From Atopococcus sp. (GTDB lineage Bacteria > Bacillota > Bacilli > Lactobacillales > Carnobacteriaceae_A), in NCBI GenBank assembly GCA_043424615.1, contig JBHWOX010000009.1:1629-65628 (forward strand): a stretch of 64,000 nt of DNA, written 5' to 3'. Below, piece after piece: positions 19,240-37,104 of the stretch. Every line of letters begins with the position of its first letter. Within the stretch, counting starts at the first letter, position 1. The position numbers and the translations under genes are program-made. A model generated the notes under the pieces. That model had not been told where the DNA came from. It saw only the letters and a list, made by a program, of their open reading frames with translations, and did not search any database.

Positions 19240-19243
19240 CCTA

Positions 19244-21379: not shown

Positions 21380-21799
21380 TTAAGCCTTGGCTTTTGTTTT
21401 GGATTTTGGGCGGCTCGCATGGATCAATCCCCAAGCATTGCCGACCATCAAAAGAGGGAGGGCAAAGACCAGATAAGGATAAATCATGAGCGTTTCCCGC
21501 CAAGGACTGATACAAAAAGCGGTCAGAAAAACTAAGACGACCAGTAGGCAGGCGTGGATATAGGCCCAGACATTCATGTGCGCCCGTCGTTTAAAGCAAA
21601 CGATGATGACGATAGCCAACATGATGATTAGAACCAAGGCTAAAAGCCATTCCATGGGAAAATTCTCGGCCCATTTTTCAAAGCGAAATTGCTCGAATTG
21701 AAAGTGGCGACTCAAGCCCATCCGATGGTGGCTGTAAAAATTTAAAAAGAAGCCACTAGCCAGCAGTATGATTTCAACTATAAGAAACAAGATATGCAT
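21380..21799 (-). CDS. Small polytopic membrane protein, unknown function
   Basis: 139 aa with about 4 hydrophobic segments. ATG after AAAGGA. It lies 15 nt downstream of the nucleoside-hydrolase-like gene, so it is probably co-transcribed. Confidence 0.5.
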   Translation of the reverse strand: MHILFLIVEIILLASGFFLNFYSHHRMGLSRHFQFEQFRFEKWAENFPMEWLLALVLIIMLAIVIIVCFKRRAHMNVWAYIHACLLVVLVFLTAFCISPWRETLMIYPYLVFALPLLMVGNAWGLIHASRPKSKTKAKA

Positions 21800-21813
21800 G
21801 TCACAACATCCTT

Positions 21814-22707
21814 TTAATCTAAATTGAGCCAGGTTTGGTAAATGTGTTTTTTCAAGCCTTCTTTATCCTTGATTTTCGGCAGGTTCAAAGCTGTCGTTTG
21901 CAGGGGTTTAGAAACCGCATAAGACGTCGGATCAAAATCATCCGCTATCAAAGAGCCTGACGATAAGGACTTCATGCTGACGGTGTAGTCATCGGGCTGG
22001 TCTTGAAAAAATTCTGGATTCACCAAGTAAGCCGCAGCTAAGGTATCCCAATTATAAAAGCCTTTGATGCCGTATTCAAGATCATTGTCTGTAAACCAAG
22101 GGTCAGAATAGTGGCGAATTAATTGGGCAATCGGGCCATCCGCACCGGCAAACATTTCTTCATATTGGTCGCGCGTGAAAAGCAAGTCCAAGCAGTTATT
22201 GCCGGTCATCAGGGAGATGCGAGGGGCCTTAGTTAGGGTCACATATGAAGCATTAGGGTCAACAGATAAATTGAGCTCCAACATCTCCTGCTTAGCAAAG
22301 ATCAAAGGTTCAGTGGTCCCTCCCATCAGCACCACTTGGTCCACTTTTTCAAAGAATTGCGGATCCAGCAAATAGGCACCGGCCAGGTTGGACATTCCCC
22401 CGGTCGCTAAAATAGAAATCTCTCCGGGCTGGGCAGCAATGCTTTGGCTAAGCGAACGGCTGGCGTCCGTTAAATAATCGCTGCATTCTGCCGCTCCCTT
22501 GTGGTAAAGCTGGGGATCTAGATCTAAGTCCTCCATCAAACGGCGGGTACAGCGGTCAACTTCTTCAATATTGGAATTACCAAAAGTCAAACTGATCCCA
22601 ACGACTTCGACATCCGGACTGCCCAAGAGATACATGAGGGCTAGGCCATCATCGACATCCCGATTAGTTGTATAGAAAGTATTATCGAAATCAATCCAGA
22701 CTTTCAT
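21814..22707 (-). CDS. Nucleoside hydrolase-like (IU_nuc_hydro fold) protein
   Basis: MKVWIDFDNTFYTTNRDVDDGLALMYLLGSPDVEVVGISLTFGN resembles the N-terminal Asp-cluster region of inosine-uridine nucleoside hydrolases, but the DxDxxxDD motif is interrupted. Its ATG directly abuts the TAG of the upstream radical-SAM gene. Confidence 0.65.
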   Translation of the reverse strand: MKVWIDFDNTFYTTNRDVDDGLALMYLLGSPDVEVVGISLTFGNSNIEEVDRCTRRLMEDLDLDPQLYHKGAAECSDYLTDASRSLSQSIAAQPGEISILATGGMSNLAGAYLLDPQFFEKVDQVVLMGGTTEPLIFAKQEMLELNLSVDPNASYVTLTKAPRISLMTGNNCLDLLFTRDQYEEMFAGADGPIAQLIRHYSDPWFTDNDLEYGIKGFYNWDTLAAAYLVNPEFFQDQPDDYTVSMKSLSSGSLIADDFDPTSYAVSKPLQTTALNLPKIKDKEGLKKHIYQTWLNLD

Positions 22708-23670
22708 CTAGAAGGCCTTCTCATCAATTTGGCCACCACAAGAAGAACCTGAACCAGCCGTACAGCCATAGCAATAATTACGGAAAACGATGTTACGCTC
22801 TAAGTCGTGGGCATCAACCACATCATAAATGGTGCGTTTGTCTTCGATCGGCAGGTTGCACATTTGGTTGAAGTCACAGTCATAAATCTGACCGTCCCAG
22901 CCAACGGATAATTGGAAGCGACACATCAAATTCGGCACGGTCTCTGGGTTGTAGGCTTCTTTTAAGAGGGCCATATAGTCGTCAAAAGAATCGGTCAAAT
23001 GCAAGAAGTTTTCAAAATAACCCAATGGCATGTTGGTGATAGTCACTAGATTAGTAAATTCAACACCCAAATCGCCTAAATGTTCTTTGTAATCTTTTTC
23101 TAATTGGGCTTGTTCTGGTGGGAGGTTGGCTCCTAGCGGGTTATGAACCAGATGCATAGGCAAGTCTTCGTCAACCCCATAACCGATTTCATTTAATTTA
23201 GCCATGGTGTTTACAATGCGGTCAAAAACTTTGTTTCCACGGATGCGGTCGGTATTGTCTTCGGTATAGCAAGGCATGGAAATAAAAATCGTACATGGGT
23301 ATTTTTCATAAAGTTCCAAAGTTTTCTTTTGTAGGAAAGTCGCATTGGTACGGATGATTAGCTCATCGATGTATGGATAGGCTTGTTCTACAAAATAGTG
23401 GAAGTCAGGGTGCATGGTTGGCTCCCCACCTGTAATATCTAGAGTATCGATTTCATCATGGTTTTTTAGAAACTCAATACAGGTGTCGATGGTTTCTCTC
23501 GACATAATCTCATTATGAGAGTCACGCATGACGTGGCAGTGTTTACAGCGTAAGTTACAAATTTTTCCAATATTCACTTGAAGAATATGGATCCCATCCG
23601 TCTGGCGGTATTCAGGATCAATATGTTCTTCAAAATTATTAACTAAAGCGGCGGGATTTTCATTGGTCAT
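22708..23670 (-). CDS. arsS: ArsS-type radical SAM / Cys-rich (DUF3641) domain protein
   Basis: LQVNIGKICNLRCKHCHV (CxxxCxxC). C-terminal CRFQLSVGWDGQIYDCDFNQM...FRNYCYGCTAGSGSSCGG matches my recollection of the DUF3641 domain of the ArsS family (TIGR04167). The preferred ATG is 23670, 8 nt after GGAG. Confidence 0.8.
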   Translation of the reverse strand: MTNENPAALVNNFEEHIDPEYRQTDGIHILQVNIGKICNLRCKHCHVMRDSHNEIMSRETIDTCIEFLKNHDEIDTLDITGGEPTMHPDFHYFVEQAYPYIDELIIRTNATFLQKKTLELYEKYPCTIFISMPCYTEDNTDRIRGNKVFDRIVNTMAKLNEIGYGVDEDLPMHLVHNPLGANLPPEQAQLEKDYKEHLGDLGVEFTNLVTITNMPLGYFENFLHLTDSFDDYMALLKEAYNPETVPNLMCRFQLSVGWDGQIYDCDFNQMCNLPIEDKRTIYDVVDAHDLERNIVFRNYCYGCTAGSGSSCGGQIDEKAF

Positions 23671-23851
23671 GGTCATCGCTCCTTCTTTTTTCAAAGTCTC
23701 GTGCTCATTCTACTATGTTTCACCTATACATTCTATCCAAATTAGCAAGGGGTTTATTAAATTAATGAATAAACAGCGGGCTTTTTGAATGATTTCAAAA
23801 AAACAAGCAGGGCTTTGAAAAGCCACTGCTTGTTTTTTTTATGTTTGCGGA

Positions 23852-25093
23852 TTATTCAGATGCGCGGTCGTCATCTAATTCGCCAACAGTTGTGTGAACC
23901 ACATCGTCTTGTTTAGGGTCTCCAACTTGAACTGGAAGTTCGTCATGCATTTGCCAGTCATTCCAGCTGCTGTCGAAGTGTAGAGGCTCATAGCCACGTT
24001 CGTACATCATCAACCAAGGAAGTGAAGAACGCCAAGCGGTTCCACAGTAAAGGGCAATCGGTTTGTCAATAGAGATGCCTTCATATTCCCACATAGCTAG
24101 AATTTCTTCGAAGTCTTTGTTGGTACCATCTTCATTTTTGTAGTCATCCATGCTGTTAGCATCAGACCCATTGGATCCTCTTAGGAGTGGACGACCCCAG
24201 TAAGCGCCTTCAGGTTCTCCAGCTTTTGGAATATAGCTGTAACCACTTTCGATTCCTCGCCATTCGTTTTCACTACGGATGGATACTAATTGGAAGTCTT
24301 CATCATTTTCTAAGCGATCCGCGGTATCTTCTAATGAAATGATGTATTCAGGATGGGCTGGAACAGCGACACCAAAGTCAGCTTCAGCCGGAGTAGGTTT
24401 GACTTCTTCACTTTCAGTTTCATAACCAGCATCTTCCCAGGCTTGTAAACCACCATCTAAGACTTTAACATTGTCAACACCTAGATAAAGAGCGGTAAAC
24501 GCAAAACGGTCGACACCAGTGTCTGGTCCGTAAAGGATTAAAGTCGTATCAGAAGTGACACCATAGTCTAAGAAGGCTTTTTCTAATTCTTCAGGACTTT
24601 TCACATTCCAAATAGGTCCTTCTTCAATAGCATCGGTGTTGAAGTGAGTAGCACCTGGAATATGTTTTTCAAGATAGTCTGGGCTGTCAGAAGCTTCTCC
24701 CCAAGTGACTTCAGCTAGGACATAGTTGCCGACATCTTCATTACCATCGATGACGTCTTTAACGTAGTCTGGAGTCACATAGACTTGTTTTTCGGGTTGA
24801 ACATCATTGATTTCTGTATCGGTAGAAGTGGGTACTGCTTCAGCAGTCGCCTCTTCACCACTGGCTTCAGATTCTTCTTCTGCTTTTTCTTCTTCTTGCG
24901 ATTCACTTTCAGCTGAGTCTGCTGATGATTCGCTACTTTCTTCTGTACTTTCTTCTGTACTTTCAGTAGTCGTATTGGCGTCAGATTCTGCTGAGTCTGA
25001 AGCTGTGCTTGAGCTTCCTCCTCCAGCACATCCGCTTAAGACCAAGACAAAAGCGACGAGTGCGGCTAACAAGATCGAGTATTTTTTCTTCAT
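23852..25093 (-). CDS. Surface lipoprotein with tandem rhodanese (sulfurtransferase) domains
   Basis: Signal peptide plus lipobox (LVLSGC), then an acidic Ser/Glu linker of about 70 aa, then rhodanese-like domains with an active-site loop YCGTAWRS (CxxxxR). Confidence 0.8.
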   Translation of the reverse strand: MKKKYSILLAALVAFVLVLSGCAGGGSSSTASDSAESDANTTTESTEESTEESSESSADSAESESQEEEKAEEESEASGEEATAEAVPTSTDTEINDVQPEKQVYVTPDYVKDVIDGNEDVGNYVLAEVTWGEASDSPDYLEKHIPGATHFNTDAIEEGPIWNVKSPEELEKAFLDYGVTSDTTLILYGPDTGVDRFAFTALYLGVDNVKVLDGGLQAWEDAGYETESEEVKPTPAEADFGVAVPAHPEYIISLEDTADRLENDEDFQLVSIRSENEWRGIESGYSYIPKAGEPEGAYWGRPLLRGSNGSDANSMDDYKNEDGTNKDFEEILAMWEYEGISIDKPIALYCGTAWRSSLPWLMMYERGYEPLHFDSSWNDWQMHDELPVQVGDPKQDDVVHTTVGELDDDRASE

Positions 25094-25395
25094 CTCTGAT
25101 TCCCCTTTTTCAAAATAGTTTATTGCTTATATAAAATAAGCCATCTTTAATTATAAAGCTTTGAAACATTTATTCCACTTTTGTTTATTAAGATATTTAA
25201 TAGCTAAAGCAAAGGTCTACCGCTTTGACAAAAGTTGGATTGACGGCTGTCAATCTTTATTTATTTACAAAAAATCTTACTCCCTAGCTTTTATTGACTT
25301 CATTGATAAATAAACAAAATAAGTGAATTTATTCATTTTTTTCTATAGGATGAAAGGCAATGACTATTAAAAAAAATATATTGATGGAGGTTACA

Positions 25396-26709
25396 ATGAA
25401 GATTAAGAAGTTATTATCCTATTTATCTCTTGTGTTTGTTGCTGTTCTTGTTCTAGTCGGATGCGGCCAGTCTAGTGGTGGTGGGGAAACGGCTAGCAGT
25501 ACGGATAGTGGCTCATCAGATAGCAGCAGCCAGGAAGTGAACGAAGAAAGCCAAGATGAAAATGTGGCTGACCTGTCTTTTGACGAATTAGTAGAAGCGG
25601 CTGATGGAAGCACCGTCTCTTTCTATGGTTGGGGTGGGGATGAAGCCCTCAACCAATGGCTGGATAATGTGTATGCTCCAGCGCTCAAAGAAAAATACAA
25701 CATCACCTTAGACCGTGTCCCTATGGATATTGAAGATGTCTTAAACCAACTCTCCAATGAAAAACAAGCGGGAGAAACTGAAGGGCCTATCGACATGATC
25801 TGGATCAACGGGGAAAACTTTGCAACCGCTCGTGACAACGACTTCCTTTATGGTCCTTTCACAGAGCAACTCCCTAATTTCCAAGACTATGTCGATGAAG
25901 AAGACCCTGAAATCAAATACGATTTCGGCTACCCTATCGAAGGCTACGAAGCCCCTTATGGTAAAGCCCAATTCGTCCTCATCGGCGATAAAGAAAAAAT
26001 GGACCAAGCGCCGGCCAATGCCCAAGAATTTTTGGAATATGCCCAAGCCAATCCTGGCCAAGTGACTTATCCAGCTTTGCCTGACTTTACGGGATCAGCT
26101 TTTGTTCGTAACATTATCTATGAATTTGTCGACCCAGCTGAATTCCAAGACATGGAAGCAGACAAAGAAGTGGTAAGAGAAGCCATTGCTCCTGCTTTTG
26201 ATTACTTGCGTGATTTGAACCCTCACTTGTGGAATGAAGGGCAAACCTTCCCTCAAGACCAACCGCAATTGAACAATATGTTTATGGACGGCGAATTAGC
26301 CTTAACCATGACTTATGGTGCTTTTGATGCAGCCATTGGTATTGAAAACGGCGAATACCCTGAAAGCGCTCAGACCTTTATCTTCGATAATGGAACAATC
26401 GGTAACACTAACTTTATCGGTATTGCCAATAACTCCACTAACAAAGCGGGGGCCATGGTAGCGATCAATGAAATGTTGTCACCTGAAATGCAGTTATCCA
26501 AATACGAAGAACTCAGAACCATTCCTGTTTTAGATAACGATGCTTTAGATGAAGACCAACAAGCAGCTTTTGATGCCGTTGATCCAGGACCAGGAACTCT
26601 TCCTCAAGACCTTCTTTTAGAAAACCGCTTGCCTGAAATGCCGGCTCATCTCGTGCCGATCATTGAAGAATTATGGTTAGAAGAAGTCGTTGGCCAAACT
26701 AATGAATAA
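25396..26709 (+). CDS. ABC transporter substrate-binding lipoprotein (possibly YnjB-like)
   Basis: MKIKKLLSYLSLVFVAVLVLVGC is a lipobox. ATG 25396 follows GGAGG. Mature-protein features: VSFYGWGGDEALNQWLDN... The family call is tentative. Confidence 0.75.
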   Translation: MKIKKLLSYLSLVFVAVLVLVGCGQSSGGGETASSTDSGSSDSSSQEVNEESQDENVADLSFDELVEAADGSTVSFYGWGGDEALNQWLDNVYAPALKEKYNITLDRVPMDIEDVLNQLSNEKQAGETEGPIDMIWINGENFATARDNDFLYGPFTEQLPNFQDYVDEEDPEIKYDFGYPIEGYEAPYGKAQFVLIGDKEKMDQAPANAQEFLEYAQANPGQVTYPALPDFTGSAFVRNIIYEFVDPAEFQDMEADKEVVREAIAPAFDYLRDLNPHLWNEGQTFPQDQPQLNNMFMDGELALTMTYGAFDAAIGIENGEYPESAQTFIFDNGTIGNTNFIGIANNSTNKAGAMVAINEMLSPEMQLSKYEELRTIPVLDNDALDEDQQAAFDAVDPGPGTLPQDLLLENRLPEMPAHLVPIIEELWLEEVVGQTNE

Positions 26710-26788
26710 TCTGATTTAATTCAAAGGAAAGGGGACTGTGACCCAGGTCATGGTCCTTTTCTGTTTTTAACCATTGAAAGGAGGACCT

Positions 26789-27670
26789 ATGAAGGCATCG
26801 AAGTTCAAAGTCAGCCTCTTGCTTTTCCCTCAGCTTTTAATTTCTATATTCCTAATGACTGGGGTCATTTATGGTCTCATCCAAGGTTTAGGTTATATTC
26901 CTGCTTTGAGTATGACCGACTGGACGCTGGACTACTACATCCAAAGCATACAAGACCCCAACACCCTGCGGAGCATTTTATTTAGCTTATGGATTGCTTT
27001 TGCCTCCAGTGTTTTATCAGTCTTGATTGGTCTTTTTATTTGTTACTTATTCATCAACCAAAAACACTATCCCAAATGGGTTCAAGCGCTGATTCAGATT
27101 CCTATCATCGTTCCCCATATTATCGTGGCCCTTTTTGTCATCCAAATCTTGAGCCAGACCGGCATCCTCGCCCGCCTGCTGTATGTCATCGGTTTTGAAA
27201 ATGCCCAGCAAATAGTGTCTGGCTGGCTGTTTGACCCTCAAGGTAAAGGCGTCATCCTTGCTTATTTGTGGAAAGAAATTCCTTTTATCGTTTTTTTCTG
27301 TTTTAGTTTGATTCGGCAAATTAACGGCTCTTTAGGTGAAGCCGCCCAGACCTTGGGAGCGAACCGCCTGCAGGCTTATGTGCACGTGACTTTACCCCTC
27401 TGCCGGCAAACCATTTTGACCTCCTTCTTTATTATTTTTATGTTTACTTTTGGGGCTTATGAGCTGCCCGCCATTTTAGGGCCGACCTTGCCACAGAGCA
27501 TTGCTGAAGCTACTTATATCGCTTATACCCATCCCGATTTAAAACAACGACCTTTCGCTATGGCCATGAATGGTTGGATTTTTATCATTAGTTTGGGAAT
27601 GGCGCTCTTATTTGCCTTTTTCATCTACCGTAAAAAACCAAGCCATAAACAAGGAGGTCAAGATGGATAA
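26789..27670 (+). CDS. ABC transporter permease 1
   Basis: Six hydrophobic segments and an EAA-type loop (GEAAQTLGANRLQAYVHVTLPL). ATG 26789 follows AAGGAGGA. Confidence 0.85.
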   Translation: MKASKFKVSLLLFPQLLISIFLMTGVIYGLIQGLGYIPALSMTDWTLDYYIQSIQDPNTLRSILFSLWIAFASSVLSVLIGLFICYLFINQKHYPKWVQALIQIPIIVPHIIVALFVIQILSQTGILARLLYVIGFENAQQIVSGWLFDPQGKGVILAYLWKEIPFIVFFCFSLIRQINGSLGEAAQTLGANRLQAYVHVTLPLCRQTILTSFFIIFMFTFGAYELPAILGPTLPQSIAEATYIAYTHPDLKQRPFAMAMNGWIFIISLGMALLFAFFIYRKKPSHKQGGQDG

Positions 27671-28469
27671 AATAAAATACCGTTGGATCAATGGCGCCTT
27701 AGCCTTAGCTTTTCTCTTACCCATTTTTATCTTAGTGGTCTGGGCCTTCACTGCTCGCTGGCCTTGGCCCCAGCTTTTTCCTCAAGAATGGACCTGGCGG
27801 GGCTTCAGCCAGTTATGGCAACGCAATCAAAACTTTAGTCAGTTAATCTTTTCCAGTGTCACTCTTTCCCTTCTGGTCGCTTTTTTATCCGTCTGCATTG
27901 GCTTTCTCACCAGCCGGGCCTATCTGATGGTTGAAAAACGATGGGCCAGCCGTTTGATTTACGGCTTGGTTTCTCTGCCGTTTTTAGTTCCGGCGGTTGT
28001 TTTCGGCATGGGGATCCACCAACTCATGATCCGCCTAGGCTGGGCCAACACCTTTTTTGGGGTCATGCTGGCTCATCTGGTCTATTCACTGCCCTATGCC
28101 ACCTATTTAATCCTGGACGCCTACCAGTCCTTTGGTTTCCGCTATGAAGAACAGGCTCGTATTTTAGGGGCCTCCAGCTGGCAAAGTATCCGCCTGGTAA
28201 CCTGGCCCCTTTTATTGCCTGTGCTATCAACCAGCTTTGCCATGTCCTATGTGGTGTCTTTTAGCCAGTATTTCCTCACTCTTTTACTGGGAGGTGGCCA
28301 AGTCCAAACTTTTGCCCTGGTCATGTTCCCTTATTTACAAAATAATGACCGGACCATCGCCAGTAATTATGGCTTGCTTTTCCTCTTGATCACCCTAGCT
28401 GTCTTTCTGATTTTCGAACGGCTGTCCGCCCACTATCAGAAAAAATACCAGCTGTCGTCTTATTATTAA
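27663..28469 (+). CDS. ABC transporter permease 2
   Basis: MDKIKYRWINGALALAFLL... with an EAA-type loop (EEQARILGASSWQSIRLVTWPLL). ATG 27663 follows AAGGAGG and overlaps the upstream stop by 8 nt. Confidence 0.85.
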   Translation: MDKIKYRWINGALALAFLLPIFILVVWAFTARWPWPQLFPQEWTWRGFSQLWQRNQNFSQLIFSSVTLSLLVAFLSVCIGFLTSRAYLMVEKRWASRLIYGLVSLPFLVPAVVFGMGIHQLMIRLGWANTFFGVMLAHLVYSLPYATYLILDAYQSFGFRYEEQARILGASSWQSIRLVTWPLLLPVLSTSFAMSYVVSFSQYFLTLLLGGGQVQTFALVMFPYLQNNDRTIASNYGLLFLLITLAVFLIFERLSAHYQKKYQLSSYY

Positions 28470-28479
28470 GGAGGTTTTT

Positions 28480-29544
28480 ATGTCGCTAGAAATCAATGAT
28501 TTATCCGTCTCTTTCGCTGACAAAAAAGTCTTACAGCAGATCAACTTAAAAGTCGAGAAAGGAGAGTTTATCAGCTTACTCGGCGCTTCTGGGAGTGGTA
28601 AAACCACCCTGCTCAAGTCCATCGCAGGCTTGGTGGATATTGACCAAGGGCAGATAAAAATTGATGGCCAAGCCATTGAAGGCAAAGAAGCTCAAGACCG
28701 CCACTTATCCTATGTCTTCCAAGACTTGCGCTTGTTTCCTCACTTGGATGTCTTTCAAAATATCGCCTTCCCTTTGAAAATGCATGCCATCGACCGAAAG
28801 CAATGGGAGGGGCGCATTGACCAGCTATTGGCTGATGTTCAAATGTCTGAATTCAAACACGCCAGCATCCAATCCCTATCCGGTGGCCAGCAGCAGCGGA
28901 TTGCCCTCGCTCGTGCCTTAGCCATCGAACCCCAGCTCCTCCTGCTAGACGAACCTTTTTCTGGTTTAGACGAAAATTTACGCTTTGAAATGGGTCAGTT
29001 GATTCAAGACTTGCACCGCAAGAACCAGCTCACCATCATCATGGTGACCCATGACAAAAATGAAGCCATTCATTATTCTGACCGGATTGCCATTTTGCAT
29101 GATGGCCTGATCCACCAATACGACCAACCTGAGCGATTAATCTACCAGCCCCAAGACCTATTTACCGCCCAATATTTCGGCCAGGTCAACCCGATTGACG
29201 GCCATGTCGAAGGACAGGCCTATCTTTCTGCTTGGGGGGAATGGCCGCTCGCTGAACAATGGGCTGGACAGACTGATTTGCTTGCCTTATTCCGTCCGAT
29301 GAACGCCCGCCTGATCCAAGATAAGCCCTTGCAAGAGGGGGAAGTCTTACTGCAAGCTCGCATCAAAGCCGTCCACCCTTCTACCCAACAGCTAATGTTG
29401 CTGGGTCAGCCCTTAAAAGGCGAAGGGGAATGGAGTTTTTTCATTGATAATACCCAAGATAATTACCGCCAAGACTGGCTAGACCAAACCATTGATCTGG
29501 CTGTCAACTTAGATGACTTGATTTATGTCTCTGCTCATTCTTAA
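28480..29544 (+). CDS. ABC transporter ATP-binding protein with a C-terminal regulatory (TOBE-like) extension
   Basis: Walker A GASGSGKTT, signature LSGGQQQRIALARAL, Walker B LLLLDEPFSGLD, H-loop VTHD. Confidence 0.9.
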   Translation: MSLEINDLSVSFADKKVLQQINLKVEKGEFISLLGASGSGKTTLLKSIAGLVDIDQGQIKIDGQAIEGKEAQDRHLSYVFQDLRLFPHLDVFQNIAFPLKMHAIDRKQWEGRIDQLLADVQMSEFKHASIQSLSGGQQQRIALARALAIEPQLLLLDEPFSGLDENLRFEMGQLIQDLHRKNQLTIIMVTHDKNEAIHYSDRIAILHDGLIHQYDQPERLIYQPQDLFTAQYFGQVNPIDGHVEGQAYLSAWGEWPLAEQWAGQTDLLALFRPMNARLIQDKPLQEGEVLLQARIKAVHPSTQQLMLLGQPLKGEGEWSFFIDNTQDNYRQDWLDQTIDLAVNLDDLIYVSAHS

Positions 29545-29590: not shown

Positions 29591-29627
29591 ATAGAGGTTG
29601 TGCTGTTGTCACGACCTCTATTTTTTA
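29591..29627 (+). terminator. Terminator of the ABC operon
   Basis: ATAGAGGT...ACCTCTAT hairpin, followed by TTTTTT. Confidence 0.75.
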
Positions 29628-29743: not shown

Positions 29744-29765
29744 ACTGATTTTTAATTTTAACTTT

Positions 29766-30491
29766 TTAATTGTATTTTGACGGACGATATTCTTCATCGC
29801 CACCGTCTAAAGCGAATTCTAACAGTTCCATCAATAATTTTTCATGCTTGTCTTTTTCATGCGCCTGGCCAAAGGTCAACCCTAAAGGAGCTTCAATGGT
29901 CAGCATGCGCGGCGGCCGTGTTTTTTCAGCTACCTTAGGCAAGTGCATAATGGAAGCCGTACGAATCCCTTTTTCTTCTACCGATCGCTGAATCTGTGCC
30001 ACAGATTGATGACAAATATATCAGCCCGGTGATAAGAGACAAATATCGACACCGTCTTGTGCCAGTGCTTCCGCCATTTCAGGAGCTGAACCTGTTCTTA
30101 AGCGGTTGACTTGGGGCATGTAACCCATCAAGCCATAATGGCGAGGAGCCACTGATCCAATAATCCCCCGGTCCGCAAATTCCCGCATTAAACCCAAAGG
30201 AAAAACCACATTCAGATCTTGGTCAGCATCTTCATGGTCATAGTGGGTATGGGTAATCATCAACTCTTCTTCTTTAGCGTCGCCAGGAATCATCCGGTAG
30301 CTATAGTCTCCATCGGTATTGAAGGGTTCTTCCGTTTTTAAATGAACCCCAGCTGTGGTAATGAAAGCCACTTTAGATTCGGATAACGGTTTTTTTACTT
30401 CAGCAATGGCCGGGGCTTCATCCACGGTACGCACCATGCGTTCTGCAATTTTTCCCCAAGCTTTTTCAATAATTCCACGTTTTTTAGCCAT
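29766..30491 (-). CDS. GrdB-family (glycine/sarcosine/betaine/proline reductase selenoprotein B-like) small protein; in-frame TGA at 30021-30023 (candidate Sec, UxxC)
   Basis: ORFs 30021-30506 and 29766-30002 are in one frame, separated only by the TGA: ...GVDICLLSPG-[TGA]-YICHQSVAQIQRSVEEKGIRTASIMHLPKVAEK...PLGLTFG... As I recall, this aligns with the U-x-x-C region of GrdB. Start ATG 30491 follows GGAGGGAGGA. Confidence 0.65.
29991..30007 (-). promoter_or_regulatory. SECIS-like hairpin 13 nt downstream of the in-frame UGA
   Basis: mRNA: UGA-UAUAUUUGUCAUC-AAUCUGU-GGC-ACAGAUU. A 7-bp perfect stem with a G-containing apical loop about 20 nt after the UGA. Confidence 0.4.
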
Positions 30492-30667
30492 AAATCCTCC
30501 CTCCATTTATTAAGTATTTTTATCTACAGGATTTGCAGTCCCTTACGAATTTTCTTAAGATTAAAACGGATTGCTTATTCATTCTAACAAAATAAAGGAT
30601 GGTTATTACTTTATATAAGCAATTTGATTTACTTATTAATTAAACAAATAAACAAAGGAGTAATGTG

Positions 30668-31558
30668 ATGACTTTATCTGATTATTTTGTAACGACCGAT
30701 TGGTTGGCTGACCATTTGGAAGATGAGGGGATCCGCATTGTGGATGCCAGCGTTATTTTTAATCCGGCAGCTGACGACCCTGCAGAAGTTTTACAATCTG
30801 GCCGTCCTGGCTATGAGGAGGGTCACATTCCAGGGGCTATCCATGCTGACCTTTTCCAGCTCAACCAAGCCGATGCTGACATTCCTTTCACCTTCACCGA
30901 TCCCCAAGCCTTCGCTGATGGGCTAGCAGATTTAGGACTGAGCGCTGACGATGACGCTATTGTCATCTATGACCGCTTGTCCATGGTGGGATTAGAAGAT
31001 AAATGCCAATTTTGGGCTTCACGTTTAGCTTGGCAAATGGCTCAAATCAGCTGGTCTAACTTTTATATATTAGATGGGGGCTTTTTCAAATGGCAAGAAG
31101 AAGACCGCCCTATCGAGACTGGCGAACACTCTTATCCCGCTCTTCCCCATCAAACCGTTGACCCTATCAATTTAAAAGCAGAAGAATCAGACGTCTTCGC
31201 AGCCATTGATAAGGATGACACCATTATTATGGATACCCTTCCTCCTGAACAATACCAGGGAGAAGTCGCTCCCTTTGGTGAGGAACATGCGGGCCATATT
31301 CCTTCAGCGATTAATGTTCACTACGGCTCTTTAACCAACAACCAAACCGGTGAATTGAAAGATGAAGAAAGTTTAAGAGAAATTTTCCAAGCAGCCAACT
31401 TGTTGGACGAAGACCAGCAGGTGATTAGCTATTGTGGTTTCGGTGTAGGGGCAACCTGGGTTCAATATGTCTTGAATGCTCTGGGGCAAGATCGGGTCAG
31501 CGTTTATGATGATTCCATGACTGGTTGGACCAACCACCAACAACCGATTAGCCGCTAA
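30668..31558 (+). CDS. Cytoplasmic tandem-rhodanese sulfurtransferase (SseA/3-MST-like)
   Basis: Two rhodanese domains (GHIPGAIHAD, GHIPSAINV). Active-site loop ISYCGFGVGATW. ATG 30668 lies 7 nt after AAGGAG. Confidence 0.85.
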   Translation: MTLSDYFVTTDWLADHLEDEGIRIVDASVIFNPAADDPAEVLQSGRPGYEEGHIPGAIHADLFQLNQADADIPFTFTDPQAFADGLADLGLSADDDAIVIYDRLSMVGLEDKCQFWASRLAWQMAQISWSNFYILDGGFFKWQEEDRPIETGEHSYPALPHQTVDPINLKAEESDVFAAIDKDDTIIMDTLPPEQYQGEVAPFGEEHAGHIPSAINVHYGSLTNNQTGELKDEESLREIFQAANLLDEDQQVISYCGFGVGATWVQYVLNALGQDRVSVYDDSMTGWTNHQQPISR

Positions 31559-32256
31559 TGTTTGTCTTGGCGGTAAAGGGCCTGTATCTTTTCAACATCT
31601 TCCCCCTGCCGGAATAAGTGTTGGCAGGTCTGCATGGTTTTTAAAGTTTTTAAATAACCGTTCTTTTCAAAACGACGGGCAGAAGTATAAATCTTTTGCT
31701 GGCTAGCGTAAATAGGCTGGCCAGCTTTTTTTACACGCAGAGAAAAATCATAATCCTCCATTAGGGCTAAGGACCTGAACCCTCCCATTTGCTGGTAAAA
31801 GTCGCGGGTCATAAACATCCCTTGGTCACCAAAAGCAATCTGTCGGTGCTTCAGCCGCCAATGGGACCCCCAAGCAATCCAATAGGCGAGGGGGTGGTGG
31901 CTAGTAAATTGAAGTCGAAAAGCCCCCATGGCATAGTCTTTTCCACCCAAAACTCGGCGAATTTCTTCCACGGGTGATTGTTTAAAATAAGTGTCTGCAT
32001 GTAAAAATAAAAGATAGTCGCCTTGACTATCTTTTACCCCTTGCTGGAGTTGTTGTCCCCGCCCTTTTTCAGACTGGCTGAGCTTGAACCCTGCTTGCTT
32101 TAACAGTTCAACCGTAGCATCCTGGCTGCCTCCATCCACTAGCAGGCATTCAACTCCTTCTTTTTCAAACACTTGCAAGCGTTGAAAAAGCACATCCAAA
32201 TTTTCAGCTTCGTTGTAAACGGGAATAATGACACTTAGAGATTTAGCTTCGGTCAT
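31555..32256 (-). CDS. Family-2 glycosyltransferase (candidate TIGR04283-type, ArsS-associated)
   Basis: LSVIIPVYNEAENL...VDGGSQDATVELL...LFLHADT. It is the last gene of the minus-strand operon. Its stop overlaps the convergent rhodanese stop by 4 nt. Confidence 0.8.
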   Translation of the reverse strand: MTEAKSLSVIIPVYNEAENLDVLFQRLQVFEKEGVECLLVDGGSQDATVELLKQAGFKLSQSEKGRGQQLQQGVKDSQGDYLLFLHADTYFKQSPVEEIRRVLGGKDYAMGAFRLQFTSHHPLAYWIAWGSHWRLKHRQIAFGDQGMFMTRDFYQQMGGFRSLALMEDYDFSLRVKKAGQPIYASQQKIYTSARRFEKNGYLKTLKTMQTCQHLFRQGEDVEKIQALYRQDKH

Positions 32257-33019
32257 GGTCGAGGTCCTCAGACTCTTGTTGGTCTATTATCTCTTCAGCG
32301 GCTTGTTTTTTCTTTTTATTGTTCATATAGCGTTCAATGATGACAGGAACCGTAGTAATTAAAATTAAAAGAATGACCGCAAAAACAAAGGACGGGCTGG
32401 TCACATCCATAGATTTATCCCCGATATTGACGTAGATAAAGGTCCCCGGCAGGATGAAGATCAAGGACAGGTAAAGATAGTCCCAGAATTTGATGTGCGT
32501 CAAGCCAAATAAATAATTTTCAACCGTATAGGGGATTAGGGGCACAATGCGCGCAAAGACTAAAAAACGCTTCAAATAGCTTTGGTTGGAAATTTTAGTA
32601 AAGGCGGCAGGATAGCGATTGGATAACCATTTTTGAATGGTATCACGGGCGAGATAGCGGGACATAAAAAACATGGTGATGAGGTTGAGGGCTGCTCCGA
32701 TGAAAGTATAGATGACCCCCCAAAAGAAGCCAAAACCCATCCCTCCCGTAATAGCCAGCAAGGGAACGGGGAAGAAGCCCATGGGTAAAAAGACCCAACA
32801 TAAGATATAGACAACGGGTCCCCAGGCTCCAGCAGATAAGATCAGATGGCGGATATATTCTGGTGAAGCATATCTAAAAATGACATAAGCAATAATCACA
32901 ATGAAAAGGCCGACAGCAATTTTTTTAAAGGGGATATTAATCCGCTTTTTGTTTTTTGTTTCGATCGTTCCAGACCTCCTTAACAATAAAGATAATAATT
33001 GATATAGAGAATAGGGCAA
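32243..33019 (-). CDS. TVP38/TMEM64 (DedA-related, SNARE-associated) membrane protein, copy 2
   Basis: Polytopic: ...GAWGPVVYILCWVFLPMGFFPVPLLAITGGMGFGFFWGVIYTFIGAALN... The start is uncertain. The ORF-track TTG at 33019 overlaps the upstream gene by 83 nt, and no good ATG/GTG follows the upstream stop. Confidence 0.65.
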   Translation of the reverse strand: MPYSLYQLLSLLLRRSGTIETKNKKRINIPFKKIAVGLFIVIIAYVIFRYASPEYIRHLILSAGAWGPVVYILCWVFLPMGFFPVPLLAITGGMGFGFFWGVIYTFIGAALNLITMFFMSRYLARDTIQKWLSNRYPAAFTKISNQSYLKRFLVFARIVPLIPYTVENYLFGLTHIKFWDYLYLSLIFILPGTFIYVNIGDKSMDVTSPSFVFAVILLILITTVPVIIERYMNNKKKKQAAEEIIDQQESEDLDHDRS

Positions 33020-33626
33020 TTAAACCGTAGAATAACCCTTTGGCACCACCAGCAAAGTTTTGACCCACATAGGAGTAAACGATGGTGGCCGGTGCTTGAC
33101 CGATCCCAGTAGCGATAATGAACGGCCAAAAGCCCATAGAGGTCAATCCTGCGGCATAGGACACAATATCAAAAGACATAAAAGGTAGTAAGCGGGAGAC
33201 AATGATGGCCCATTTCCCATATTTGTCGAAAAAGCCATCCAAAGACTGGAGGGCTCGCTCAGAGGTGAGGGAAACCACCACATCACGCCCCAAACCACGG
33301 GCAATGTAGAAGCATAAAGCAGCCCCCACCATGGAAGACGTCCAAGAAAGAAGGGCCCCCTGCCACCAGCCGAAGATTGCGGCATTCGCTAGGGTAATTA
33401 CAAAAGCAGGGATGGGTGAGACGATGGACTGGAGAATCATTAAAAAGAATGATACAACGGCGGCTGTTTTACCGTATTGTTGGAGGTATTCAACCACCCC
33501 GTCCAAGCCTTCAGAAGTTAAAGTTTGAACCGCTGTGTTGATCCACTCTCTCACACCAGGAATAAATAAATAAAGTAAGACCAGAGTAATGAGTATGCCT
33601 AGTGTGATTTTTTGATTTCGTGTCAC
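32937..33626 (-). CDS. TVP38/TMEM64 (DedA-related) membrane protein, copy 1
   Basis: Polytopic: ...SFFLMILQSIVSPIPAFVITLANAAIFGWWQGALLSWTSSMVGAALCFYIARGLGRD... Its GTG start shares GTGA with the stop of the upstream gene. Confidence 0.7.
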   Translation of the reverse strand: MTRNQKITLGILITLVLLYLFIPGVREWINTAVQTLTSEGLDGVVEYLQQYGKTAAVVSFFLMILQSIVSPIPAFVITLANAAIFGWWQGALLSWTSSMVGAALCFYIARGLGRDVVVSLTSERALQSLDGFFDKYGKWAIIVSRLLPFMSFDIVSYAAGLTSMGFWPFIIATGIGQAPATIVYSYVGQNFAGGAKGLFYGLIALFSISIIIFIVKEVWNDRNKKQKAD

Positions 33627-35143
33627 AGCAAGTCCTCTCCTTCTTTGATGTATGCTTTTATTTCTTCTAAAAATGGCAAGCTAATGAACCGCTCAATCAC
33701 CTGGGCGGTTTGGTCATCAGATTCTATTTTGGTTGATTCATGATTTTGCACATAGGCCATGGCACACCAGGTAATGCCTCTCAAGCAAGTAAATAATAAG
33801 TATTGGATTAATTTCGGCCGGTCAACGGGAACTTTGGCGTGCTGGTCATAAAGGTCGGCAAAGTCCATGACATCCTCAAAATCCAATAGGACATCGGTCT
33901 TCCAGAGGGTCGTGGTAGGAGCTAAGAAATGCCCTAAGTCCTGTTCTTTTTCACCTACTAAAGGTTTTTCCCAGTCAATCACATAGGATGACTGGCCCGG
34001 GTTGATTAAGAAATTCCCTGAGTTTAACTCGGTATTAATCACACAAGGGTCGGCAATGGGCGCTTCTAAATCAAAACGCTCTAAGCCGGCTAACATCTCT
34101 TCAATGGTGGAGACGACCTCTTCATCTCTATGCTCCCAAGCTTGATAGTGACTAAACATAGAGGTAAATTCGTCCATCATGACTTGGAAAGGGTGTTTGG
34201 CCCGAATCAAGTGGGGAATCTTCTGTTCATCGACTTGATGAATACTGGCCAATAATTCGGCTGCAATGGGCATATCCGTCCGATAATCTAGAGGGCGGCC
34301 ATCAAGAAATTCCTCCACCAAAAAGCCCTTGCCTAAGAGTTCAGTATGTTCGACTAATTCGAATACAGCAGGGACCACACCACTTTCATATAAGCCTTTT
34401 AAAGCATAATACTCATAATTAATCTGATTGTCCAAGCCCATCTGCGAGCCTAAAGCGATTCTAAGCAATTTATTACCATTATCTATAAGAAAATTAGCAT
34501 TGTATTCCCCTTGGCTGTGGAAGCGGGCTCCTAAATCTCCAGACAAGACCTTGGCAATATCTTCTCGATCATCAATGTCAATAATTTGTCCGACAGTGGC
34601 CGTTTGGTAGCCGGCTTTTTCCGTTAATTCAAGGGTCTGCTGGCAGACCTTATCATGAGAATAAGCGTCCAAAGCAAAAGATGCAGGAATGGGGCGATCC
34701 ATCCCAATTAAGCCAAAACCACCATCTAAAGAAGGGGTCAAGACCAGGTTGACTTGGTCTAAGCTTTCAAAGGCCTGGTCAATGATCTCTGTTGTCAGAT
34801 TGTACAGGTCAGATCCGACTAAGATGACTTTATCATATGATTTATTAAATATTTCCTCGAAGGCCGCCAACATTTGTGGGCCCAATTCTCCATCTAATTG
34901 ATAGTTAATATGGTCGGTTGAAATATCAAAAAAATCGGCCAAATCTTCCTTCTTTTGATCAGCTGGAAGGTAGTAATACAAGTCGGCTTGTTCATAAGAA
35001 GATAAGACCTGGAAGTTTTTTCGAGCCAAGTATTGGCTTAAATAATAAATTTCTTCCAAATTCAAAAAATTACGCAGGCGTGTTTTACCTGCTCCTAGTT
35101 CGGGAAATCTTAAAAAATAAATCATAGCGTTTGGCTGACTCAT
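33623..35143 (-). CDS. Fusion protein: N-terminal DUF2064/CofC-like nucleotidyltransferase (candidate TIGR04282) + C-terminal APH/choline-kinase-like phosphotransferase
   Basis: N-terminal: MIYFLRFPELGAGKTRL...KVILVGSDLYNL...VLTPSLDGGFGLIGMD. C-terminal: NANFLI.NGNKLLRIA..., GFLVEEFLDGRPL, INTELNSGNFLINP...YVIDWEKP (kinase catalytic-loop-like). The start could be 35143, 35158 or 35125. Confidence 0.7.
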   Translation of the reverse strand: MSQPNAMIYFLRFPELGAGKTRLRNFLNLEEIYYLSQYLARKNFQVLSSYEQADLYYYLPADQKKEDLADFFDISTDHINYQLDGELGPQMLAAFEEIFNKSYDKVILVGSDLYNLTTEIIDQAFESLDQVNLVLTPSLDGGFGLIGMDRPIPASFALDAYSHDKVCQQTLELTEKAGYQTATVGQIIDIDDREDIAKVLSGDLGARFHSQGEYNANFLIDNGNKLLRIALGSQMGLDNQINYEYYALKGLYESGVVPAVFELVEHTELLGKGFLVEEFLDGRPLDYRTDMPIAAELLASIHQVDEQKIPHLIRAKHPFQVMMDEFTSMFSHYQAWEHRDEEVVSTIEEMLAGLERFDLEAPIADPCVINTELNSGNFLINPGQSSYVIDWEKPLVGEKEQDLGHFLAPTTTLWKTDVLLDFEDVMDFADLYDQHAKVPVDRPKLIQYLLFTCLRGITWCAMAYVQNHESTKIESDDQTAQVIERFISLPFLEEIKAYIKEGEDLL

Positions 35144-35434
35144 CAATTCCTTTAGCACCTACCTTAATAAATATAATCATACTTCTCACATCTTAAGTAT
35201 ATCAGCTCATTTTCACAAGCTAGGGCTGGCTTGGAAGCCTTTGAATCATTATATTTTTTAATAAGTTTATTAATGGTCCTAATAACTTATCAGTCAGCCT
35301 GATAAAATTTGGGCATTTATAGATAATATTAATAGCCGTCAAAATTATATGGAAATAATGGTATAATGACCTTTGATAAAAATTTATCATGAACGTATCA
35401 AAGAAAGTAATATCAAAAGAATGGGCGTGAAAAT

Positions 35435-36355
35435 GTGGATTTAAAACAATTAGAAACTTTTATGACTGTGGTTGAGTGGGGAAGTTTTTCCGATGCTGCT
35501 AAACACCTATACTTATCCCAACCCACCGTTAGTGTCCATATCAAACAACTTGAAGATGAATTTGGTACCGAGCTCATTAAACGAACAACTAAAAGCATTG
35601 AGATGACCAAAGAAGGACGCGAATTTTACAGCTATGCCAAGTCCATCGCTGATATCATCGAAAATGCCAAAGACACTTTCTCCAACCAAGGATCCAAAAA
35701 CATTAACATCACGGCCTCTTCCATTCCTGCTTCTTATTTATTACCGAAGATTATTAAGGCCTATCATGATGAAGTACCGGATGCCTTAATTACCGTCGAC
35801 CAAACCGACAGTATCGACACTACTGACCAGGTCCTCAAAGGGCGCACCAATGTCGGATTTGTTGGCAGTGTCTCCATGAATAGTGACTTAAAATATGAAA
35901 AACTCTGTGAGGATAAATTAGTCTTAGTCGCCCCTTATAACGACTATTATTTAGCAAAAAAAGAAGGGGAAACCCCTATCGAAGAGCTCTTGACCGAACC
36001 CATCATTAAGCGGGAACAAGGATCAGGAACTTTAAAAGAAACCATCAAAATGCTGAATGCCATGCAGATTGACGAAAGTAATTTGGATGTTGTGGCGGTG
36101 GTGAATAGTAATGAAGCGCTGATTAATTATGTGAAAGCCGGTCTTGGTATTTCCGTTATCTCCGAAATAGCCGTCATGGATGATGTTCGCAAACATAACT
36201 TGATTGCGTTCGACATCGAAGAATTAGAATCCTACCGTAACTTCTACATGGTTACTCGTAAAAACTCTGTCTTATCCCATCAAATGGCTCATTTCATCAA
36301 CTTTTTACGCGACTATATTGAAATGGAAGAAGCCGAAACCGTTCAAGAAATCTAA
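35435..36355 (+). CDS. LysR-family transcriptional regulator
   Basis: (M)DLKQLETFMTVVEWGSFSDAAKHLYLSQPTVSVHIKQLEDEFGTELIKR (HTH) plus a substrate-binding domain. It is divergent from the DUF2064-APH operon. Confidence 0.9.
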   Translation: MDLKQLETFMTVVEWGSFSDAAKHLYLSQPTVSVHIKQLEDEFGTELIKRTTKSIEMTKEGREFYSYAKSIADIIENAKDTFSNQGSKNINITASSIPASYLLPKIIKAYHDEVPDALITVDQTDSIDTTDQVLKGRTNVGFVGSVSMNSDLKYEKLCEDKLVLVAPYNDYYLAKKEGETPIEELLTEPIIKREQGSGTLKETIKMLNAMQIDESNLDVVAVVNSNEALINYVKAGLGISVISEIAVMDDVRKHNLIAFDIEELESYRNFYMVTRKNSVLSHQMAHFINFLRDYIEMEEAETVQEI

Positions 36356-36397
36356 GTATAACCCCTTGCCAATCCTAACTATTTGTCATGATTGCTT

Positions 36398-36438
36398 AAA
36401 AAAGAAGAGGCTGTGATTTTTTTCGCCTCTTCTTTTGC
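36398..36438. terminator. Bidirectional terminator
   Basis: AAAGAAGAGGC...GCCTCTTCTTT, flanked by A-runs and T-runs. Confidence 0.75.
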
Positions 36439-36453
36439 CATTTATAAGGGGTT

Positions 36454-37104
36454 TTAGCTTTCTAAAATAAAGGGCAGACATTGATCGATCGTTTCACAAA
36501 TAGCTAGCGTAGCGGCTTTTTCTTTAGCTGTCGGTTCGATAAGGTCTGGAACCATGATCACATCCAAATTAGCCCGCTGGCAAGCTTCCACCCCATTTAA
36601 GGAATCTTCAATGGCAATGGCTTTTTTCTTGGCTATGCCCGTACTAGCTAAGGCCTTCAAATAGATATCTGGATGGGGCTTGGCCTCTTCCATCTGGTCA
36701 CCGGCCACAATGCCGTCAAAATAATGGCCGATCCCTGCTTTATCAATTAGGGTTTGAACCATCGACAAATCATTTGAAGAAGCCACAATCATTTTTATGC
36801 CTGCCTTAGCTAGGGCCTTTAATAATTCATCCAAACCTTCTTTTTTAGGGGCCCCTTTTTCTTTGTAGATCTCTAAACGAATATCATAGGCATCCTGGTA
36901 AATTTTATTTCCCAGGGCTTCGTCCCCTACTTTTTCAATGGTCAACCGTCGATTTTGTTTTTGGCTGGTTCCAGCATATTTCAGGTAATCTTCCCATTCA
37001 AAATTAATATTTTCTTTGGCGAAGGCTCGCTGGTTGGATTCGTACAAGACCGTTTCAGTATCAAAAAGCACACCGCTCATATCAAAAATAACTAAGTCTT
37101 TCAT
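36454..37104 (-). CDS. HAD-superfamily hydrolase (beta-phosphoglucomutase-like subfamily)
   Basis: MKDLVIFDMSGVLFDTE... plus later HAD motifs (VASSN, EDSLNGVEA). Motif I reads D-M-S-G rather than the usual DxDG, so the general-acid Asp is replaced by Ser. Confidence 0.75.
   Translation of the reverse strand: MKDLVIFDMSGVLFDTETVLYESNQRAFAKENINFEWEDYLKYAGTSQKQNRRLTIEKVGDEALGNKIYQDAYDIRLEIYKEKGAPKKEGLDELLKALAKAGIKMIVASSNDLSMVQTLIDKAGIGHYFDGIVAGDQMEEAKPHPDIYLKALASTGIAKKKAIAIEDSLNGVEACQRANLDVIMVPDLIEPTAKEKAATLAICETIDQCLPFILES

Follow-up and report, generated by a model that had tools for sequence, protein, structure and literature searches.

A conserved ArsS-type radical SAM cluster of Atopococcus and related Bacilli is merged with an import and sulfurtransferase module and may handle selenium or sulfur

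Introduction

What do the genes around an ArsS-type radical SAM enzyme do together, and on which element does the enzyme act, in a lineage where selenium context is present and arsenic context is missing? The question is raised by a block of about 15 genes at positions 21380-37104 of a 64 kb stretch of Atopococcus sp. DNA (here called the window, meaning the whole stretch that was analysed). The label "arsenosugar biosynthesis", which this type of cluster carries on thousands of genomes, rests on one cyanobacterial enzyme and may be wrong for human-associated Gemella and Aerococcus. We find that the block is conserved as a system, in which a Bacilli variant of the cluster formed by ArsS, transferase 1 (T1) and transferase 2 (T2) is merged with an import and sulfurtransferase module like that encoded by E. 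coli ydjXYZ-ynjABCDE. The reading that we prefer, at a probability of roughly 0.4, is a selenium- or sulfur-handling pathway that makes a 5-substituted ribosyl conjugate and works as one system of two modules in host-associated Bacilli. The searchable literature yielded nothing on the function of T1 and T2 or on a selenium or sulfur role of ArsS homologues; new to it are the Bacilli variant, the fusion of T1 to an APH-type kinase, the alternation of a phosphorylase with a hydrolase and kinase, and the link to the E. coli operon.

Results

The block is a conserved unit across genomes

The genes of the block also lie together in Aerococcus, Facklamia, Gemella, Muricomes and a Bacillus-type contig (L093), in orders and flanks that differ. 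Because the flanks differ in every genome, the association is selected rather than inherited by chance. Family assignments were made with curated hidden Markov models (HMMs; Pfam and TIGRFAM/NCBIfam) against the model cutoffs. In the window the block consists of seven transcription units on both strands, delimited by terminator-like hairpins, with the following genes.

21380-21799, minus strand: small four-helix membrane protein, terminal gene of the ArsS operon, no HMM match
21814-22707, minus strand: inosine-uridine-type nucleoside hydrolase homologue (PF01156, 116.5 bits), proposed to remove adenine
22708-23670, minus strand: ArsS-family radical SAM/DUF3641 protein, cysteine form (TIGR04167, 360.7 bits, cutoff 300; PF04055; PF12345, 171.9 bits)
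23852-25093, minus strand: surface lipoprotein with tandem rhodanese domains, YnjE-like (PF00581; lipobox LSGC; loop CGTAWR)
25360-26709, plus strand: lipoprotein substrate-binding protein of the YnjB family (NF008633, 453.9 bits, cutoff 203)
26789-28469, plus strand: two ABC permeases (about 26789-27670 and 27663-28469; PF00528) that match the fused E. coli YnjC
28480-29544, plus strand: ABC ATPase, YnjD-like (PF00005)
29766-30491, minus strand: PrdB-like selenoprotein of the GRDB family (PF07355; TIGR04483, 192.5 bits, below the cutoff of 300)
30665-31558, plus strand: cytoplasmic tandem rhodanese, MST/SseA-like (PF00581, 99.8 bits; loop CGFGVGA)
31555-32256, minus strand: T2, a GT2 glycosyltransferase (TIGR04283, 246.7 bits, cutoff 182)
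32243-33019, minus strand: DedA/VTT membrane protein, YdjX-like (PF09335, 73.8 bits; weak similarity to E. coli YdjX)
32937-33626, minus strand: DedA/VTT membrane protein, YdjZ orthologue (PF09335, 99 bits)
33623-35143, minus strand: T1, a DUF2064/CofC-like nucleotidyltransferase, fused to an APH/ChoK-fold kinase (TIGR04282, 143.4 bits, cutoff 134; PF01636)
35435-36355, plus strand: LysR regulator of a selenium-associated subfamily (NF040786, 323.5 bits, cutoff 250), divergent from the T1-APH operon

The permease gene starts are taken from calls on L002, and the true start of the YdjX-like gene probably lies downstream of 33019. The hydrolase gene abuts that of ArsS, with stop and start codons adjacent, and hairpins follow the small membrane protein gene (21320-21306) and the ABC ATPase gene (29591-29621).

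In Facklamia miroungae, 13 of 15 window genes are contiguous in a 17-kb cluster, which lacks ArsS and the cytoplasmic rhodanese. It contains LysR (49% identity), the surface rhodanese (63%), the substrate-binding protein (62%), the permeases (51% and 56%), the ATPase (56%), the small membrane protein, T1-APH, GT2, the PrdB-like gene (59%, with its TGA codon kept), both DedA proteins (47% for the YdjX-like one) and the hydrolase (60%). The small membrane protein shares 30% identity over 95% of its length with a 152-aa Facklamia protein encoded just upstream of T1-APH. In addition, the Facklamia cluster carries DsbD, a ResA-like thioredoxin, YdjY and, next to LysR, an EF2568/SclA-like desulfurase.

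Aerococcus has nine window genes in one co-directional array: T1-APH, the PrdB-like gene (split at its TGA codon), a rhodanese, DedA, GT2, a YnjE-like rhodanese, the small membrane protein, the hydrolase, ArsS and an MST-like rhodanese. The ArsS of this array is the closest named relative of the window enzyme (64% identity), its hydrolase is 57% identical, its small membrane ORF (open reading frame) occupies the equivalent position, and its last gene is 40% identical to the cytoplasmic rhodanese. The array thus unites ArsS with the PrdB-like gene and three rhodaneses. GT2 is 53% identical to both the Aerococcus and the Facklamia proteins; homologues of the surface rhodanese also lie inside the clusters of Muricomes (51%) and Aerococcus (37%). 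The YdjZ-type DedA is 50-63% identical in Aerococcus, Facklamia, L093 and Muricomes, and the YdjX-like one 45% in L093. On L093, the selenium-associated LysR gene is divergent from the series ArsS-DsbD-thioredoxin-DedA-DedA-YdjY, and Muricomes and the Firmicute contig L090 show further permutations of the cluster genes. Beside the Rhd-Rhd-T1APH-DedA cluster on a Gemella haemolysans metagenomic scaffold (L095), at a distance of 5-8 kb (16454-19456), are two TehB-like methyltransferases of the tellurite/selenite type and a low-molecular-weight phosphatase/ArsC-type gene.

An earlier note on this DNA, made from the letters alone, had placed the ORFs at positions from which none departs by more than a few codons. 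It had named ArsS/TIGR04167, TIGR04282, TIGR04283, PF01156, PF09335, PF00581 and PF01636 as the families to search, and the ORFs fall in them. It had also made co-conservation of its five gene groups, judged by neighbourhood comparison, one of the points on which its proposal should stand or fall; the Facklamia and Aerococcus clusters unite those groups. A chance juxtaposition of genes with no common function is highly improbable. The seven transcription units on both strands would fit it, as would the poor conservation of a HAD hydrolase gene and some other neighbours, but the set recurs in at least five genera in varied orders and flanks, and synteny contradicts such an origin.

The import genes are homologous to an uncharacterised E. 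coli operon

The model hit by the substrate-binding protein, NF008633, leads to E. coli K-12 (NC_000913.3, 1833401-1841403), where ydjX, ydjY, ydjZ, ynjA, ynjB, ynjC, ynjD and ynjE form one gene string. The DedA protein at 32937-33626 is 55% identical to YdjZ over 204 aa (E 7e-67), the substrate-binding protein 36% to YnjB (E 2e-59), the lipoprotein rhodanese 38% to YnjE (E 3e-56) and the ATPase 32% to YnjD (E 1e-21). YdjY and YnjA gave no tblastn match in the window, and YdjY homologues are present in the Facklamia, L093 and Muricomes clusters. By these similarities, the ABC importer, the surface rhodanese and the two DedA proteins, which the earlier note had placed in its third group and in part of its second, are one ancient module (module A), homologous to the E. 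coli operon, a relationship that is a new finding.

The E. coli operon is activated by FNR and is uncharacterised (PMC3688515), and no literature on the function of ydjXYZ-ynjABCD was found. Among the DedA paralogues of E. coli, YdjX and YdjZ stand apart in function, and Synechocystis Slr0305 is reported to group with them (PMC3836016). Convergent to ynjE lies ynjF, a CDP-alcohol phosphatidyltransferase gene that would fit a lipid-linked product. The best named relatives of the window permeases are tungstate, molybdate and sulfate permeases.

ArsS is canonical, and its Bacilli clade is free of linked ArsM

The window ArsS carries the CX3CX2C motif as CNLRCKHCH and keeps every residue that is invariant in a 23-sequence alignment, including all invariant cysteines; these residues are common to ArsS-ArsM fusion proteins. 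Its C-terminus, CYGCTAGSGSSCGG, is the all-cysteine form with a CxxC...C tail, a tail that in some relatives carries selenocysteine (PMC13188914). A search of solved structures returned none for ArsS or for the PrdB-like protein.

The wider family was surveyed in 77 non-redundant ArsS loci among the matches listed; flanks of up to 10 kb were included, and the neighbours were clustered without prior labels. These are distant ArsS proteins (41-46% identity), and the census is not informative for Aerococcaceae. T1/T2 neighbours occur in about 50 of these listed loci, a metallophosphoesterase or AhpD-like protein (TIGR04169) in 47, ArsM (within 10 kb, sometimes fused to ArsS) in 30, purine nucleoside phosphorylase (PNP) in 22, a rhodanese (NF045521, 'rhoda_near_glyco') in 21, DUF547 in about 20 and DedA, in some cases fused to a disulfide reductase, in about 10. 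The fused proteins, beside ArsS at about 8-10 loci (L057, L017, L039, L079 and others), join DedA/VTT to a pyridine-nucleotide disulfide oxidoreductase like MerA or lipoamide dehydrogenase and are about 716 aa long. In a Peptoniphilus metagenome-assembled genome (L094, 12113-14901), an ArsR/HTH_5 regulator lies about 1.2 kb from a lone ArsS homologue; next after it comes an 825-aa protein that joins CoA-disulfide-reductase, rhodanese, TusA and DsrE domains, so that in this Firmicute, too, ArsS has a sulfur-relay protein nearby.

In a neighbour-joining tree, the window ArsS sits in a Bacilli clade in which none of six loci is linked to ArsM, and a second clade (other Firmicutes, Actinobacteria and Synergistota) has none in five. 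ArsM linkage is therefore 0/11 in the two ArsM-free clades against 30/69 elsewhere, where it is scattered (Fisher p = 0.005, not corrected for phylogeny). In the window, tblastn detected no ArsM, PNP or AhpD-like gene. Among its larger ORFs, scanned with the HMM library except for a few smaller ones and the 1824-aa ORF at 37208-42682, there is no ars gene, selD, selA, selB or tRNA-Sec. The earlier statement that arsM and ars genes are missing holds for what was scanned of the window. The contrast built on it, sulfur and selenium genes instead of arsenic genes, proves less clean: rhodanese accompanies ArsM in 11 of the 21 rhodanese-positive listed loci, and NF045521 already models an ArsS-associated rhodanese.

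These data bear directly on the canonical alternative, an arsenosugar or arsenolipid pathway in which ArsS would adenosylate dimethylarsenite supplied by an unlinked ArsM or by the host (urine or gut), while the rhodaneses, DedA proteins and thiol or selenol proteins keep arsenic reduced and thiol-bound. The only characterised ArsS member adenosylates DMAs(III) (PMC13598754), and Synechocystis arsS is co-transcribed with arsM (bioRxiv 2022.09.23.509062). TIGR04167, TIGR04282 and TIGR04283 are all exceeded in the window, every invariant ArsS residue is kept, and in the census ArsM neighbours, ArsS-ArsM fusions and the 11 loci that combine rhodanese with ArsM are in line with arsenic. Set against this are the lack of ArsM and of ars genes in the window as just scoped, the 0/11 linkage in the ArsM-free clades, a regulator that is a selenium-associated LysR and not ArsR, rhodanese loops of the sulfurtransferase type, and hosts that are oral, urogenital and gut commensals. 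On balance we consider arsenic a serious but somewhat doubtful answer.

A hydrolase and kinase replace the phosphorylase

PNP and the pair of hydrolase and APH-type kinase never occur together among the listed loci, and the pair is confined to the Bacilli set. A phosphorylase yields ribose-1-phosphate directly, whereas a hydrolase needs a kinase to reach that product; in the Bacilli set, the hydrolase and kinase replace PNP. Methionine salvage follows the same logic, with MtnP in place of MtnN plus MtnK. This alternation is the best available support for the steps that would remove adenine, phosphorylate and nucleotidylate the sugar. The solved relatives of the window hydrolase are nucleoside N-ribohydrolases.

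The TIGR04282 match of T1-APH is marginal; PF09837 scores 72.2 bits and the T1 half matches PDB 3cgx. A C-terminal APH fusion is atypical for the TIGR04282 family and occurs in Facklamia, Aerococcus and Gemella. The kinase half (33623-34540, minus strand) gives an AlphaFold2 model with a predicted local distance difference test score (pLDDT) of 93, whose top 50 Foldseek matches are APH, ChoK, LicA and similar small-molecule kinases. The window kinase is thus a generic APH/ChoK-fold enzyme and is not specifically MtnK-like. Its catalytic-loop pattern N-T-E-L-N-x-x-N is invariant in 27 homologues.

Among solved structures, GT2 is best matched by dolichol-P-mannose synthase and ArnC, in both cases only over its N-terminal half. 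Since these nearest solved relatives are polyprenyl-phosphate glycosyltransferases, GT2 may transfer its sugar to a polyprenyl-phosphate-like lipid. A lipid-handling role would fit the DedA pair (bioRxiv 2022.02.03.479048).

A selenoprotein, sulfurtransferases and a selenium-associated regulator accompany the cluster

The GrdB-family ORF with an in-frame TGA that the earlier note had reported is indeed present, with the TGA at 30021-30023 in the motif SPG-U-YIC. The TGA, the U-YICHQS motif and the downstream frame are kept in three genera (the window, Aerococcus and Facklamia), with synonymous changes in the codons that directly follow; 13-16 nt downstream of the TGA there is a small hairpin. 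Statistics for a selenocysteine insertion sequence were negative, the hairpin energies being indistinguishable from those of shuffled sequence, and the selenocysteine (Sec) assignment rests on conservation at the coding level. Database homologues are nearly all fragments of about 155 aa that end at the TGA codon. The PrdB-like gene was also considered as a universal pathway partner and rejected, as the homologues of Salipaludibacillus and Tengunoibacter stand alone.

Both rhodanese loops, CGTAWR and CGFGVGA, are of the six-residue sulfurtransferase type and not the seven-residue CX5R type, so that an arsenate reductase of the Acr2/Cdc25 type is rejected. The cytoplasmic rhodanese reaches 139 bits with NF008557, under its cutoff.

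The LysR model NF040786 is also matched beside the Facklamia cluster (312.4 bits) and, on L093, by the regulator divergent from ArsS (305.2 bits). All organisms in which regulators of this type have been reported contain SelD, and most of them decode Sec; the regulators have been proposed to sense selenophosphate (PMC5322559). In the window, this LysR probably controls the system. A perfect 17-nt palindrome of the T-N11-A type, GCTTATATAAAATAAGC, a candidate LysR operator, lies at 25125-25141, in the region from which the surface rhodanese gene and the ABC importer genes diverge. As a shared LysR operator it was rejected: at up to two mismatches there are 6 matches in the window against 2.7 expected, none of them in the other cluster promoters, which gives no evidence of a regulon.

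The selenium context could also belong to a system of its own, co-located and co-regulated with the ArsS genes yet chemically separate. Module A, a NifS-like enzyme, the rhodaneses and the LysR would then acquire selenium or sulfane sulfur for SelD and the Sec protein, and ArsS, the hydrolase, T1-APH and GT2 would make an unrelated glycoconjugate. In E. coli, module A occurs although ArsS, T1 and T2 are lacking; Facklamia and Gemella keep rhodanese, T1-APH and DedA without a nearby ArsS; ArsS can stand alone; and the LysR is reported as a regulator of Sec-related genes (PMC5322559). However, the single co-directional array of Aerococcus mixes rhodanese and Sec protein genes with those of the supposedly separate pathway (T1-APH, GT2, hydrolase and ArsS), ArsS heads the L093 operon with DsbD, thioredoxin and two DedA proteins, and rhodanese, AhpD-like and DedA proteins recur with ArsS, T1 and T2 across phyla. 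Such a split is unlikely.

Neighbouring genes

One further gene borders the block.

36454-37104, minus strand: HAD (beta-PGM-like) hydrolase (PF13419, 119 bits; motif I D-M-S-G)

The description of this hydrolase as atypical is justified, as D-M-S-G replaces DxDG and the second catalytic Asp becomes Ser. HAD genes near the Aerococcus (28% identity) and Gemella (23%) clusters sit in other operons, and membership of the HAD gene in the cluster is not established.

The other scanned ORFs of the window are housekeeping and surface-protein genes (among them WalRK, ribosomal proteins, Trk and 5'-nucleotidase). A scan of the whole window at Rfam gathering thresholds returned an L10 leader and one tRNA only, neither of which is a clue to a ligand; the ribosomal protein L10 leader (RF00557, 76.3 bits; 6377-6538, minus strand) lies upstream of rplJ and is ordinary. 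A guaA-like ORF (45839-46786, plus strand) matches GMP synthase at positions 196-512 only, which is its ATP-pyrophosphatase half, and leaves no upstream space for the glutamine amidotransferase half, so that GuaA is split or truncated. Surface-protein features comprise a large protein with 11 G5 domains (1375-5013, plus strand), the unannotated 1824-aa ORF immediately to the right of the cluster (37208-42682, minus strand), and an Nt5e-like ecto-5'-nucleotidase with a sortase downstream of it (47499-51057, plus strand).

Discussion

Taken together, the conserved unit lends itself to a pathway in which module A (the surface rhodanese, a YnjBCD-type importer with oxyanion-type permeases, and the two DedA proteins) would capture and import a species of a thiophilic element. 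The cytoplasmic rhodanese and the PrdB-like Sec/Cys redox protein would pass the element to the Cys-rich tail of ArsS, which would attach 5'-deoxyadenosyl to it, as in the known chemistry of the family. The nucleoside hydrolase would strip adenine, the APH-type kinase would phosphorylate the 5-substituted ribose at C1, the DUF2064 domain fused to this kinase would form the nucleoside diphosphate (NDP)-sugar, and GT2 would move the sugar to a lipid or polyprenyl-phosphate-like acceptor handled by the DedA proteins. The skeleton of this scheme (adenosylation, adenine removal, C1 phosphorylation, nucleotidylation and GT2 transfer) had been sketched in outline in the earlier note. It gains from the mutual exclusion of PNP and hydrolase plus kinase and is moderately well supported; the sulfur or selenium chemistry proposed with it is still hypothetical.

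Least secure is the choice of the element. For the Bacilli lineage, selenium (or sulfur) seems to us likelier than arsenic, a reading strengthened by the conserved Sec protein, by the recurrence of the selenium-associated LysR in three lineages and by the 0/11 ArsM linkage. Also consistent with selenium are the Sec codon conserved in three genera, the EF2568/SclA-like desulfurase of Facklamia, the six-residue sulfurtransferase-type rhodanese loops, and ABC permeases that resemble those for oxyanions (sulfate, molybdate and tungstate). In addition, a link between DedA and selenite is said to have been drawn by Ledgham in 2005, a study listed in PMC3836016.

Several observations weigh against this reading. 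To our knowledge, no T1, T2 or module A enzyme has been characterised, and we know of no adenosylation that forms a C-Se or C-S bond in the ArsS family. Given the high equivalog score and the retention of all invariant residues, no feature of the ArsS sequence suggests an altered substrate. Rhodanese, AhpD-like and DedA proteins are general ArsS accessories and do not discriminate between elements, as the 11 rhodanese loci with ArsM and at least one case of DedA with ArsM illustrate. A Sec protein and a selenium-sensing regulator are compatible with a selenium-dependent enzyme in an arsenic pathway, and ArsM could be encoded outside the analysed stretch, or the host could supply methylated arsenic. 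Linkage is also imperfect: in neither Facklamia nor Gemella does the 10 kb around the cluster contain ArsS, the next-closest ArsS relative (P0006, 60% identical) stands alone, and the PrdB-like gene is unlinked to the cluster outside Aerococcaceae. The kinase has the catalytic loop N-T-E-L-N-S-G-N in place of the canonical H-x-D-x-x-x-x-N (His to Asn, Asp to Glu), and an MtnK-like kinase was rejected by the fold search, which has no MtnK among its top 50 Foldseek matches. Finally, if Synechocystis ArsM is slr0303, a YdjZ-type DedA gene (slr0305) may adjoin the validated arsM-arsS pair, which would favour arsenic.

A more specific form of the selenium or sulfur pathway is doubtful: in commensal Bacilli (Aerococcus, Facklamia, Gemella and Atopococcus), ArsS would form a C-Se or C-S bond on a perselenide or persulfide bound to a rhodanese or to the Cys tail. 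The product would become an NDP-5-seleno(thio)ribose and then a glycoconjugate linked to the membrane, all controlled by a LysR that senses selenium. On the same reading, E. coli ydjXYZ-ynjABCDE would serve anaerobic acquisition of selenium or sulfane sulfur. If the element is selenium, the cluster would represent a new biological route to C-Se bonds and a new class of selenium metabolites in the human microbiota. The equivalence of hydrolase plus kinase with a phosphorylase gives the uncharacterised transferase 1 and 2 proteins a testable role in a pathway, and the uncharacterised E. coli operon is tied to a defined biochemical neighbourhood.

The nearest known system is the ArsM-ArsS arsenosugar pathway of Synechocystis, reportedly described by Xue et al. 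in 2019 and Cheng et al. in 2021. The window ArsS belongs to the same equivalog family and is expected to give a 5'-deoxy-5'-(element)-adenosine, followed by adenine loss and glycosidation. Unlike in Synechocystis, no ArsM is linked in the window, the regulator is the selenium-associated LysR and not ArsR, a hydrolase, kinase, Sec protein, ABC importer and surface rhodanese are added, and the hosts are commensal Bacilli.

With the NCBIfam 'rSAM/selenodomain-associated' set, the block shares TIGR04167, TIGR04282 and TIGR04283 proteins over cutoff and rhodanese neighbours. It differs in the fusion of T1 to the APH kinase (found only in Facklamia, Aerococcus, Gemella and relatives), in the hydrolase and kinase that replace the PNP of Bacteroidota ArsS clusters, and in lacking, in the window, the AhpD-like TIGR04169 protein and the metallophosphoesterase. 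Its rhodaneses are tandem YnjE-like and MST-like proteins rather than the single-domain NF045521 type.

Like the PrdB and GrdB selenoproteins, the PrdB-like protein belongs to the GRDB fold family and has U-x-x-C at the equivalent position. In contrast to PrdB of D-proline reductase, it scores well below the TIGR04483 cutoff and has no pyruvoyl partner PrdA or GrdE in the window; it represents an orphan family, whose members are found alone in other Firmicutes and Chloroflexi.

Methionine salvage (MtnN plus MtnK in place of MtnP) likewise uses a hydrolase and an APH-fold kinase as an alternative to a phosphorylase, and LicA/LicC-type activation likewise couples a kinase to a nucleotidyltransferase; both are analogies only, the first carrying no specific similarity to MtnK in sequence or fold.

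The E. coli operon shares YdjZ, YdjX-like, YnjB, YnjC, YnjD and YnjE-like proteins with the window, whereas ArsS, T1, T2 and the hydrolase are absent from E. coli and YdjY and YnjA from the window. The lipid-anchored rhodanese of the window is built of two domains where E. coli YnjE has three, and the window permease is split in two.

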